64,000 bases of DNA from an uncultured Actinomycetota bacterium (GTDB lineage: Bacteria; Actinomycetota; Actinomycetes; Mycobacteriales; Mycobacteriaceae): contig CAVXBT010000014.1 of NCBI GenBank assembly GCA_963760095.1, positions 64,359 to 128,358 of the forward strand. The letters run 5' to 3'. A program made the position numbers and the translations under genes. Positions within the stretch are counted from its first letter, which is position 1. Every line of letters begins with the position of its first letter. Shown here in pieces: positions 53,918 to 56,711 of this stretch. A model generated the notes under the pieces. It was not told the origin of the DNA and ran no database searches. It saw nothing but the letters and a program-made list of their open reading frames with translations.

Positions 53918-55084
53918 GTGAGCCCTGCCGATTCCCGCCGGATCGCGCGCTGCTCACTGATCGCCATGACCATGGCGTGGCTGCTTGCCGGCCAAAGGTT
54001 CCCGCCCGCCCACGCCGATCCACCGGCGCCCATGCCGGAACCGGTCCTGGGGCCGCTGGCGCCCGGTGAGGTGATCCGGATCGGTCCGACCGCGGGGACC
54101 GGGACGCCGACCCGTGACTACGGCATCGGGGCCACCGACTTGTGCGTGTTCATCGAGTTCCCCACGCAGGTGGTGCAGGTCTGCGGCGACAGTTTCGCCG
54201 GCCAGGGCGTCGGCTTCGGCGGTTACTATTCGCCGATCGCGTTGCGCGTGGACACGTCGTCCGTCGATGACCCGGACGGGGTCCGCTACACCGGGGTCAC
54301 CGGCGTCACGGAGCCGCTGCTGGCCGACCCAACGCCGTCGGGCGCATCCCAGCTACCGGCCGGCGTCGTGCAGATCAACCGGCAGAATTACCTGCTCGTC
54401 ACCACCACCAAAGACCTGGTGCCGCAGACCTCACGGTTGGTGAAAGCCGAACCCACACAAGGCTCTTGGCCGACCCTTCCGGGTTCGGTCCGGGAAGCCG
54501 ACTATGCGGGCGGCCGGCAGTCGCAGATCAGTGGCTACTACGACCCGATACCGACGTCTGAGTCGCAGACCGGCTGGGTGTACGTCGTCGCCGATGACTT
54601 CGACCGCAGTCAACCGGCGGTGCTCTACCGTGTTGCACCCCAACACTTCGGCGACCGTTCGCGGTGGCAGGGCTGGGCGTCGGGTCCTGATGGTGGTTGG
54701 GATAAGCAGCCAACGCCATTGTGGGGCGACCTGATCGGTGAGATCAGTTTCAAGCAGATCGACGGTAAGGCGGTGCTGTCGTATTTCAATTCGAGCACCG
54801 GAAACATGGAAGTGCGGGTGGCTGACGACCCGACCTCGCTGGGCAGTTCGCCGGTCACCACCGTGGTCCAGCACGACGACTGGCCCGAACCCGCGGAAAG
54901 CCTGCCGCCGCCTTACGACAACCGGCTGGCTCAGCCCTACGGTGGGTACATCTCCCCGGGCTCGACACTGGACGAGTTGCGAGTGTTCGTCAGTCAGTGG
55001 CACAACGTCGATCCGCGGGCCCGCTCCCCTTACCGGGTGATCCAGTTCGCGGTCAACCCGTTCAAGCCCTGGTCAGAGCCTTAG
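53918..55084 (+). CDS. DUF4185 protein, Rv3707c ortholog (GH183 endo-D-arabinanase family)
   Basis: Signal peptide, GATDLC...CGDSF, PYGGYI...FVSQW motifs; follows asd as in Mtb. Confidence 0.85.
   Translation: MSPADSRRIARCSLIAMTMAWLLAGQRFPPAHADPPAPMPEPVLGPLAPGEVIRIGPTAGTGTPTRDYGIGATDLCVFIEFPTQVVQVCGDSFAGQGVGFGGYYSPIALRVDTSSVDDPDGVRYTGVTGVTEPLLADPTPSGASQLPAGVVQINRQNYLLVTTTKDLVPQTSRLVKAEPTQGSWPTLPGSVREADYAGGRQSQISGYYDPIPTSESQTGWVYVVADDFDRSQPAVLYRVAPQHFGDRSRWQGWASGPDGGWDKQPTPLWGDLIGEISFKQIDGKAVLSYFNSSTGNMEVRVADDPTSLGSSPVTTVVQHDDWPEPAESLPPPYDNRLAQPYGGYISPGSTLDELRVFVSQWHNVDPRARSPYRVIQFAVNPFKPWSEP
55044..55069 (+). repeat. attL core AGTTCGCGGTCAACCCGTTCAAGCCC
   Basis: Last codons of the DUF4185 gene (FAVNPFKP); repeated at 56686. 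Confidence 0.88.
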
Positions 55085-55500
55085 ATCTCGTGGCTGGTCC
55101 GCACTGCGTCCGCAGCAGACCCAAGAGACTGATCCAGCAGGTGCCCTGCCGCCTTGCGGGTCCGGTCGTTGGCCTCAGATGTGAGTACGTCGTCGAGGCG
55201 ATGGCCGCAGAGGATGCCCGAGCGCCCGCTGGACCGTGACGACATCGCAGCCTGCTCGGATGAGCCGGGAGGCGTAAAAGTGTCGCGGGTCGTGCAGCCG
55301 GTACGGAACACCCACCTGGTTGCGGGCACCGCGCCAGTATCGCGCCACCGTGGCTGCGTGGGCGGGCAGCTTGGCGTCACGGCTGCCGGGGAACAGCCAG
55401 CGGTCAGGGTTGTCGCCGGGTCGGTCCGGACCTCATAGCGACCCATAGACGCGACCGCGCCCGACACGAACTTGCGTCGGTTCTGGACCTGCCGACGGTG
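55081..55500 (-). pseudogene. Tyrosine integrase C-terminal remnant, frameshifted
   Basis: Mixed frames give RWLFPG...YRLHDPRHFYASRLIRAGCDVVTVQRALGH (HxxR, LGH), TYSHL (catalytic Tyr) and ANDRTRKAAGHLLDQSLG...*. Confidence 0.88.
55097..55118 (+). repeat. 22-bp repeat GTCCGCA(C/G)TGCGTCCGCAGCAG, copy 1, candidate integrase arm site
   Basis: Second copy at 56578-56599 (21/22). Each copy holds two GTCCGCA units. Confidence 0.7.
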
Positions 55501-55549
55501 GTTAGATTAGGTACCGAGCAGATGACACCGAAGAAATGGAAATCCTGCC

Positions 55550-55978
55550 GTGCGCACCGGCATCACCAGCCTTGCAGACGCTCTGGTTAGCGCCTCGGTG
55601 GTGCTGACCGCCGCAATTATTTGCGCTGGCGCGGCAAGCGCCGACCCGAGCCAGCAGGATCAGTTTGTGGCGCTGCTGGAACAAGATCAGATTCCCCTCA
55701 TCGATAACTTGCCTGCTCTCGTCGCCCGAGCCCATCGAATTTGTGGCGAACTCGATGGCGGCGCCTCGGTCGAGACCGTGGTAAACGAAGAGATGAACGG
55801 TATTTTCGAGGAAAATCCGGCTTACCACCAAATTTCCGATCGGGTTAGAAGAACCTCGGTCAGATTCGTCGCCGTATCAGCGGACGTCTACTGCCCAAGC
55901 CATCTTGTCGATCCGTATGTAGGCGACGTCGGCTTCTCTATCCTTGGTCCAGTGTCAGGGGTACGTCACCAGACGTAG
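55550..55978 (+). CDS. DUF732 domain secreted protein (element cargo)
   Basis: Signal peptide ASA-DPSQQDQF, AHRICGEL...ADVYCP. Confidence 0.75.
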   Translation: MRTGITSLADALVSASVVLTAAIICAGAASADPSQQDQFVALLEQDQIPLIDNLPALVARAHRICGELDGGASVETVVNEEMNGIFEENPAYHQISDRVRRTSVRFVAVSADVYCPSHLVDPYVGDVGFSILGPVSGVRHQT

Positions 55979-56229
55979 ACGGGATTCGTTGTGGGGCAAG
56001 AGAATCCCACGACACATGTTCGACATGCATCGTTGCGGAACACATGCTTGAAATGCAATTTAATGCTGCTCACCTTTGCGGAGACTGCATGACTGACGAA
56101 GTGCAAAGCGCGAACCAATTGATGCAGCAGTTCAGCTAGTTCGATGAATCCCCGCTGAAGCGCCTCAGCGAGTGGGCCCACCACAGGAGAGTTGTGGCGG
56201 GCCGATCAACCGTTTAGCCGCGGTGTTCG

Positions 56230-56457
56230 TCATGGCCTTACCCCTGGCCCAGGCGCAGAGAACGGTCCTTGGTGCAGGCCGGAGAACGGTCCCTGGTGGA
56301 GGACGGAGAACGGTCCTTGGGTATGAACCCGGGAGTGCGGCACAGGTGGCGTCCACGTCCCGTGGGCGTGTGCCGTACCGGCGAACCCCAGCGAGGCACC
56401 GAAGAGCAGTACCGCAACGGTGAGAGCGTTCCGGATGGTGAGTGCGAATGTGTTCAT
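56230..56457 (-). CDS. Small secreted peptide with three H(T)QGPFS repeats (element cargo)
   Basis: 75 aa; signal peptide ending AHA. 24-bp tandem repeat GAGAACGGTCC.. at 56258, 56282 and 56306. Confidence 0.65.
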   Translation of the reverse strand: MNTFALTIRNALTVAVLLFGASLGFAGTAHAHGTWTPPVPHSRVHTQGPFSVLHQGPFSGLHQGPFSAPGPGVRP

Positions 56458-56577
56458 CGGGGTTCCAGTATGCCAGCGAGAACCCCCATCTTGACGCCTA
56501 AGTAAGCTGAAGTCACCCTTGTCGTCGCCCGCCTACCAGATCCGTGACGGGCGACGCTACGCGCGGGCCGGAGCCCT

Positions 56578-56599
56578 GTCCGCAGTGCGTCCGCAGCAG
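56578..56599 (+). repeat. 22-bp arm-like repeat, copy 2
   Basis: GTCCGCAGTGCGTCCGCAGCAG, about 87 bp inside attR. Confidence 0.7.
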
Positions 56600-56685
56600 T
56601 GTTTTCCGTACCTTCTAAACGCCAACAGATCCAACGCTCTGACCTGGGGCGTGCTGGCCCAGCCGACGCAGTTTGCCTAGGTAAT

Positions 56686-56711
56686 AGTTCGCGGTCAACC
56701 CGTTTAAGCCC
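56686..56711 (+). repeat. attR core AGTTCGCGGTCAACCCGTTTAAGCCC
   Basis: 25/26 identical to 55044-55069. Reads FAVNPFKPVS*, a displaced copy of the gene end. Confidence 0.88.

Follow-up and report, generated by a model that had tools for sequence, protein, structure and literature searches.

A decayed phage-related element at the 3' end of a mycobacterial DUF4185 arabinanase gene marks a recurrent integration site

Introduction

Bacteriophage L5 and most mycobacteriophage systems with a tyrosine integrase (Int-Y) use tRNA genes for integration. Insertion at the end of a protein-coding gene has its textbook case in phage 21 and the element e14, which are found at the 3' end of icd in Escherichia coli. 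Here we describe a decayed phage-related element in the last codons of a DUF4185 gene, an orthologue of Rv3707c, in DNA of an uncultured member of the Mycobacteriaceae. The analysed stretch, referred to as the window, comprises 64,000 nucleotides (nt) of contig CAVXBT010000014.1 (assembly GCA_963760095.1).

The closest described mycobacterial system is attB-8, a bacterial attachment site (attB) of Mycobacterium abscessus. It is formed by the 3' end of MAB_2979, and integration of cluster MabH prophages replaces seven C-terminal residues (Dedrick et al. 2021, mBio, PMC8092301). Seven of the 23 Int-Y attB sites of M. abscessus are not tRNA or tmRNA genes, and other attB sites have already been turned into integration-proficient vectors (PMC10654092).

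The locus described here resembles attB-8 in that a mycobacterial tyrosine integrase uses the last codons of a protein-coding gene, C-terminal residues are swapped and the target gene is presumed functional. It differs in the target, which is MAB_2979 there and an ask-asd-linked DUF4185/Rv3707c orthologue here. The elements differ as well: MabH comprises complete 44-kb prophages with integration-dependent immunity, whereas the DUF4185 site holds islands and remnants of 0.8–53 kb. With phage 21 and e14 the locus shares a phage attachment site (attP) that copies a conserved gene 3' end, a rebuilt gene with a displaced pseudo-3' end at the far junction, and decayed remnants that stay in place. 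The integrase lineage, the host phylum and the target gene are unrelated, and here the stop codon of the integrase gene (int) overlaps that of the rebuilt host gene. In common with the integrases (Int) of L5 and lambda, there is a three-part protein, short repeats, here putative arm sites, that flank the core and, in intact relatives, a small helix-turn-helix (HTH) excisionase (Xis). Unlike L5, the elements appear from their sequence to carry only two tandem putative arm repeats per arm, one pair within the int coding sequence.

A preliminary description of the window had presented a protein-coding attachment site as unusual. The principle of such insertion is known, as attB-8 and the seven non-tRNA sites of M. 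abscessus illustrate, but novelty seems to lie in the site and in the lineage of the integrase. Neither of two surveys of mycobacterial prophages (PMC8092301, 2021; PMC10654092, 2023) mentions DUF4185 or Rv3707c, and a literature search for DUF4185 together with integrase found nothing relevant, the one paper in which both terms occur being unrelated. DUF4185 corresponds to glycoside hydrolase family GH183, and Rv3707c encodes the endo-D-arabinofuranase AraH2, which acts on the cell wall (PMC10115798). The attB lies in a gene conserved across mycobacteria, and each integration rewrites the C-terminal tail of the arabinanase.

Attachment junctions and the empty site

The end of the DUF4185 gene is present twice in the window. 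A 26-mer, AGTTCGCGGTCAACCCGTTCAAGCCC, is found at 55044-55069 and recurs with a single C>T exchange (25/26) at 56686-56711. The number of such pairs expected by chance is 0.00, and two matches with up to 3 mismatches were not reached in any dinucleotide-preserving shuffle of the window. Ungapped extension lengthens the repeat to 35 nt with 31 of 35 positions identical (55044-55078 and 56686-56720). The 1.64 kb bracketed by the two copies have no counterpart in the closest relative. The features that make up the two junctions, attL and attR, are:

53918-55084, plus strand: DUF4185/GH183 endo-D-arabinanase gene, Rv3707c (AraH2)-like (Pfam PF13810, E=1.5e-51; PDB 8an0, E=1e-186)
55044-55078, plus strand: attL repeat, common core at about 55047-55069 (TTCGCGGTCAACCCGTTCAAGCC); the sequence right of the core is element-derived
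55081-55425, minus strand: tyrosine integrase remnant of about 115 C-terminal codons with two frameshifts (Pfam PF00589, E=5.5e-6)
56686-56729, plus strand: attR repeat and displaced native DUF4185 3' end, reading FAVNPFKPVS and stop, with the ancestral TGA at 56727-56729; host sequence resumes after it

The DUF4185 open reading frame (ORF; 388 amino acids, aa) is intact, and its C-terminal end reads ...FAVNPFKPWSEP before the stop. The Pfam domain stops at residue 377 of 388, where the 26-mer starts, so that the repeat is confined to the protein tail. The final codons of the gene, from about 55047, form the attL core and are followed by an element-supplied tail, WSEP and stop. The distal copy, FAVNPFKPVS, is in frame with the later TGA, which corresponds to the native stop in a relative with an empty site (G019; genomes, contigs and loci are given by our G, C and L numbers). 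The ask and asd ORFs lie directly upstream of the gene, which matches the order Rv3709c-Rv3708c-Rv3707c.

The int remnant starts on the minus strand two bases from the host stop. Its own stop, TAA, reads TTA on the plus strand at 55081-55083 and shares two bases with the host TAG at 55082-55084. The GC content inside the insert is 53–57%, compared with 65–70% in the flanks. The 25/26 repeat built from the FAVNPFKP codons, the intact host gene ending in WSEP with its distal copy, and the overlap of the two stop codons had all been reported in the preliminary description, and each was found again in the present analysis. A tRNA or tmRNA gene as the insertion target was excluded, as none is present within 6 kb (50000-62000).

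Relatives without the element allow the junctions to be read directly. G019, which carries the closest DUF4185 DNA (83% identity) among the 40 relatives first searched, has an empty site. Its DUF4185 gene ends in ...FAVNPFKPWSDAN and a TGA stop, followed by the homologue of window position 56730 onwards, and the two pieces of its alignment to the window overlap on a single core. We therefore read the 1.64 kb as an insertion and the distal copy as the displaced native gene end. The same arrangement is found at the empty site of G013, and every locus fetched from relatives without the element (L006-L023) contains one core. A second 26-mer without an integrase-linked insertion was looked for in the relatives and not seen. 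The repeats at 55044 and 56686 are thus the true attL and attR junctions of a decayed phage-related mobile element, and the assignment of the DUF4185 3' end as attB, made earlier from the window alone, is borne out by G019 and G013.

Recurrence of the insertion in other mycobacteria

Two hundred species representatives of the genus were searched with the integrase fragment. Intact or near-intact homologues of 73–80% identity, whose stop codons abut the DUF4185 core, were found in G051, G066 and G148, and further int remnants occupy the site in G008 and G207. The surmise that intact relatives exist elsewhere was therefore correct: elements at the same site are present in other species. A scan of named genomes, in which the 401-aa integrase of G051 served as the query, returned 40 integrase loci. 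In 28 of these, the end of a convergent DUF4185 gene follows 2–10 nt after the int stop. The hosts include M. paraense IEC26, M. alsense, M. interjectum, M. helveticum, Mycolicibacterium pulveris, Mycolicibacter icosiumassiliensis and many metagenome-assembled genomes (MAGs) from soil and bog.

A strict attL pattern, consisting of the core, a gap of 26–30 nt and a pair of arm repeats, matched 13 of 401 genus representatives, with 0 matches for the reversed control. This count sets a minimum, as the pattern misses variant cores like that of G008. Occupied genomes contain exactly two cores where both are located on one contig, and the lengths bracketed by them are 0.83, 1.64 (the window), 1.9, 3.8, 5.4, 13.6, 14.7, 15.0, 15.7, 22.9 and 53 kb. 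Dozens of Mycobacterium species share this insertion site and this lineage of integrases. The suggestion of an uncatalogued hotspot stands on the 28 of 40 loci, the 13 of 401 representatives and the silence of the two surveys.

At three loci first taken as empty, L013, L014 and L015 (in G007, G003 and G016), micro-scars follow the DUF4185 stop. They consist of tails of the element type together with GTCCGCAG repeats in degenerate form; G003 additionally has a second core at a distance of 1.9 kb. Past occupancy of the attB is therefore commoner than the integrase count suggests. A further disrupted locus is L024 (G008:C8, about 2150-3070), where the DUF4185 frame is broken around 55 codons before its end. 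Here a 124-aa int remnant is followed by a C-terminal piece of an IS256-type transposase and then, at the contig end, by a condensation-domain gene resembling those of nonribosomal peptide synthetases or PapA.

The wide distribution could in principle go back to a single ancient insertion in a common ancestor, inherited vertically and decayed to different degrees, without any recurrent hotspot. The many lineages that retain only scars or short remnants would fit such a history, as would the divergence of the integrases (62–80%), which falls within the range of the host genes. We compared the last 900 nt of the host gene with the 3' 330 nt of int at 17 occupied loci, and the two identities are uncorrelated (r=0.11). 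Near-identical int remnants are found in divergent hosts (host 74%, int 97%) and divergent ones in similar hosts (host 90%, int 75%). In addition, the cargo is unrelated among elements, several integrases are intact and accompanied by a xis gene, and the closely related G019 is empty while more distant relatives are occupied. The lack of correlation, the unrelated cargo and the empty G019 site favour repeated independent integrations, and descent from one ancient event is very unlikely.

A collection of 50,697 phage records was searched by tblastn with the G008 fragment and the full-length M. paraense integrase. The best match has 33% identity over the full length, and no Mycobacterium phage or prophage matched at E≤1e-20. 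Based on this result and on the different target gene, membership of the elements in the M. abscessus attB-8/MabH system was rejected. An exact scan of IMG/VR for the core pattern gave no match; the related proviral contigs that a protein search detected there either have been trimmed where int stops or carry a core variant. The proposal to search genomes and phages for relatives was thus fruitful for genomes, which yielded intact elements and empty sites, but not for the phage collection, where no integrase exceeded 33% identity.

Anatomy of the attachment sites

The attL and attR sequences from eight genomes were aligned, and the attP arms of eight elements were joined in silico and aligned likewise. 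An attL junction as in the window is present in G051, G066, G148, G207, G217, G219, G220 and G008. All aligned elements have an identical layout: P arm, core, tail with the int stop, and P' arm. In the window, the arms contain:

55097-55118, plus strand: P' arm tandem pair GTCCGCACTGCGTCCGCAGCAG, within the 3' part of the int coding sequence, some 28 nt to the right of the core; putative arm-type Int sites
56578-56599, plus strand: P arm tandem pair GTCCGCAGTGCGTCCGCAGCAG, non-coding, about 90 nt left of the attR core; putative arm-type Int sites
56600-56685, plus strand: rest of the P arm, with the family-conserved blocks GCCRCCAACA and CTGACCTG, a core-proximal block and the inverted repeat I1

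The family core, TTCGCGGTSAACCCGTWYAAGCC, precedes a conserved tail similar to TGGTCAGAGG, after which int has its stop. Across elements, the P arm carries the tandem pair GTCCGCAGnnnGTCCGCAG about 90–105 nt left of the core, as well as the core-proximal block ...AAACGCnCAGRAACGG. The P' pair is found within the last int codons, which encode the motif ADxLRT, at a distance of about 28 nt to the right of the core. The position and orientation of the pairs are conserved in both arms of all eight bracketed elements. In the window they take the form of the direct repeat GTCCGCA(C/G)TGCGTCCGCAGCAG, at both 55097-55118 and 56578-56599.

In G220 and in the provirus G222, both arms contain GTACGCAG where the others have GTCCGCAG. 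This change is synonymous in the P' arm, where it affects an Arg codon, and falls into non-coding sequence in the P arm. We therefore read the tandem pairs (form GTCCGCAGTGCGTCCGCAG, variant GTACGCAG) as putative arm-type Int binding sites that change together. The limits of the crossover are indicated by two elements with mismatched core edges. The left edge differs between attL and attR in G207, and the right edge in G066, so that the exchange is probably confined to about 19 bp, CGCGGTSAACCCGTWYAAG. The intact integrases, of 401–420 aa (PF00589, E=1e-18 to 1e-23), have three parts: about 100 N-terminal residues without an assigned domain, a SAM-like core-binding domain and a catalytic domain.

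A repeat of this kind might also arise without site-specific recombination, either because the gene end was duplicated locally when an illegitimate insertion took place or because a transposon made a long target-site duplication. The insert does lack a working recombinase, and a cassette with a DUF732 gene inside it has paralogues elsewhere in the genome. However, neither a transposase nor terminal inverted repeats are present in the insert, and a target duplication of 26 bp far exceeds, to our knowledge, those of known transposases. The int remnant abuts the repeat exactly as in the intact elements, and the arm sequences on both sides are conserved in the family. The attL/attR junctions and arm pairs held in common with other elements contradict such an origin, to which we assign next to no chance.

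The window copy is an immobile remnant

The int remnant of the window retains the motifs HxxR (as HDPRH), GH and TYSHL. In three-frame translation it reads ...DRWLFPGSRDAKLPAHAATVARYWRGARNQVGVPYRLHDPRHFYASRLIRAGCDVVTVQRALGH, SSAAIASTTYSHL and EANDRTRKAAGHLLDQSLGSAADAVRTSHEI up to the stop, with the two frameshifts between these pieces. About 285 N-terminal codons are lost, and with them the arm- and core-binding domains as well as half of the catalytic domain, namely its first half with the first catalytic residues. The remnant is 60% identical to the G008 fragment (E=6e-35) and 61% identical to residues 282-392 of the M. paraense integrase. Homology to other integrases breaks off abruptly at the DNA level at 55424/55425. 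Two further genes are found in the insert:

55426-55980, plus strand: DUF732 cassette with a secreted-protein ORF at 55550-55978 (Pfam PF05305, E=1.1e-10; phrog_658, E=4.9e-11)
56230-56457, minus strand: small ORF of 75 aa; its N-terminus resembles a signal peptide, and it contains three tandem repeats of 24 bp at 56258-56329; no Pfam match

The DUF732 cassette is joined straight onto the truncated int, and its gene is intact. Paralogues of 85–86% identity are located on two other contigs of the same genome (G000:C6:463903-464497 and G000:C15:44645-45009). As both adjoin fragments of other, unrelated integrases, DUF732 genes look like recurrent island cargo in this genome. The cassette was not found in the elements at the DUF4185 site of other species and has paralogues only within its own genome. 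It may be original cargo or a later arrival by recombination between islands. The small ORF, whose 24-bp repeat encodes three HQGPFS-type repeats, is horizontally acquired cargo, given its position inside the remnant. A Pfam scan detected no virion structural or packaging genes in the insert.

Excision would depend on an integrase that is either intact within the element or supplied in trans as a cognate enzyme, and neither is available to the window copy. No intact member of the lineage is present in its genome, where no full-length integrase exceeds 34% identity. An N-terminal integrase fragment of 90 aa at G000:C19:133819-134052, which shares 53% identity with the M. paraense integrase (residues 9-94), contains an in-frame stop and directly follows an IS21-like istA/istB pair. 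It was ruled out both as the missing half of int and as a trans-acting integrase on account of its length, the stop, its insertion sequence neighbour and the lack of a catalytic part.

It could still be argued that the 1.64-kb segment is a mobile mini-element, moved in trans by a cognate integrase of the genome or of an infecting phage. Its attL, attR and both GTCCGCAG pairs are nearly intact, and two further isolated GTCCGCAGnnnGTCCGCAG pairs are present in the genome, on C1 and C5. We consider this highly improbable, as a stop-bearing fragment is all that the genome offers beyond the 34% identical protein, the insert contains no xis gene, and the junction at 55425/55426 between the int remnant and the rest looks illegitimate. 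In the light of the missing integrase, the remnant is fixed. The window copy is dead and immobile, the rebuilt arabinanase gene is intact, and no excised circles are expected. The interest attaches to the family more than to this copy.

Modules and cargo of the element family

The elements have in common a module of int, an HTH repressor and an HTH_17 (Xis-like) gene, joined in some by a primase or replication gene, while the remaining cargo is unrelated. The int, xis and repressor genes are all intact in some elements, including those of M. paraense, M. pulveris and M. interjectum, and in G051, G066 and G148 the int gene has an HTH_17 ORF as its neighbour. The G148 element encodes a 1,524-aa tape-measure protein and a DNA polymerase/primase. 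In G051, the cargo is defence-like, with Abi_2, Schlafen/AlbA_2 and a 1,211-aa helicase, plus a resolvase. Besides its int, the G066 element encodes another tyrosine recombinase, a fragment of a serine recombinase and an AAA_25/DnaB-like pair. Genes of these foreign elements were called with a simple caller based on GC content at third codon positions (GC3), and the lists may be incomplete, because this caller missed the low-GC DUF732 gene.

The largest element, G193:C5:100665-153735 (L114-L116), spans 53 kb between two cores; an arm pair is present at either end, and int is truncated. Its cargo is mostly metabolic (P450, ferredoxin, acyl-CoA dehydrogenases, short-chain and aldehyde dehydrogenases), and it looks like a catabolic island. 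The range of cargo, from DUF732 proteins through Abi, Schlafen and helicase genes to the 53-kb metabolic island, makes the site worth searching for strain-specific accessory genes. The elements at the DUF4185 site are best described as phage-derived islands in varied states of decay.

Proposed history of the insertion

Very probably, a phage-related element was inserted at the end of the DUF4185 gene by a lambda-type tyrosine integrase and decayed thereafter. The parent would have encoded this integrase and carried an attP with a 20–26 bp copy of the last DUF4185 codons. Recombination between attP and the gene end would have proceeded by a crossover inside TTCGCGGTSAACCCGTWYAAG, with the integrase most likely bridging the core and the GTCCGCAGnnnGTCCGCAG arm-type sites, one tandem pair per arm. 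The host gene would have kept its frame and gained a few element-encoded final residues and a new stop at attL, overlapped by the convergent int stop, while its native end moved 1.64 kb downstream to attR. The parent presumably possessed an HTH_17 excisionase and an HTH repressor, as the intact relatives do. Later internal deletions and frameshifts would have ruined int and removed nearly everything else. This would have left both att junctions, both pairs of arm sites, the DUF732 gene and the small secreted ORF behind as an immobile remnant.

Several observations weigh against this account. Each of its steps is drawn from sequence comparison. The largest piece of the int remnant scores 26.7 bits against PF00589, just below the gathering cut-off of 27.1. 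The P' repeats lie inside the int coding sequence, at ADxLRT, where conservation could reflect coding constraint alone; the argument for arm sites therefore rests on the non-coding P-arm copy and the joint change in two elements. No complete prophage was found at the DUF4185 site, and among the elements there only that of G148 carries a tape-measure gene. The largest phage-like element measures 15.7 kb and contains a tape-measure gene, and the elements of 22.9 and 53 kb bear genes that are metabolic or resemble defence genes. Instead of a phage, the parent could thus have been a satellite or an island of phage origin.

Sister integrases with other targets

Integrases of the same clade, with 53–66% identity and the same GTMCGCAG arm pairs, are located directly at the 3' ends of further protein-coding genes. 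One target is ychF (...DGDVVEFRFNV and stop), which is used in Rhodococcus, in several MAGs and in the provirus G222 (L075, L089, L100, L070). Another is a carotenoid-oxygenase-like gene (...PYGFHGNWIEA and stop) in Mycobacterium sp. M26 and one MAG (L079, L073). The clade seems to specialise in gene ends. For ychF as attB, a literature search found only Streptococcus pneumoniae prophages, an unrelated system.

The provirus G222 (L110/L111) is a siphovirus-like IMG/VR record of 36.8 kb, 82% complete according to CheckV, and it ends with a ychF-type sister integrase of 61% identity. It encodes a large terminase, a portal protein, a major head protein and a tape-measure protein, and its arm pairs are laid out as in the DUF4185 family. 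In at least one lineage, then, the recombination module is carried by a phage.

Taken together, these integrases may form an uncatalogued and still active actinobacterial clade, a proposal to which we give about even chances. Its members would specialise in the last codons of conserved genes (AraH2/DUF4185, ychF, carotenoid-oxygenase-like), use one arm-site code of GTMCGCAG pairs, one of them in the C-terminal codons of int itself, and change target by swapping a core of about 25 bp. If this holds, the intact members in M. paraense, M. interjectum and M. pulveris would provide a new mycobacterial integration site and vector system, and the clade would be a natural series for studying how attB specificity evolves. 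The lineage of the DUF4185 site has no close relative among some 50,000 deposited phage genomes, and its intact members could become integration-proficient vectors.

Genes downstream of the site

Downstream of attR, at 56813-58006 on the plus strand, lie three consecutive small genes for paralogous single-pass membrane proteins. They have in common the core motif LY..AAWV.I.AGI.F and possess His/Gly/Pro-rich tails. Since they are conserved downstream of attB in relatives with an empty site, these genes belong to the host and are not cargo of the element.

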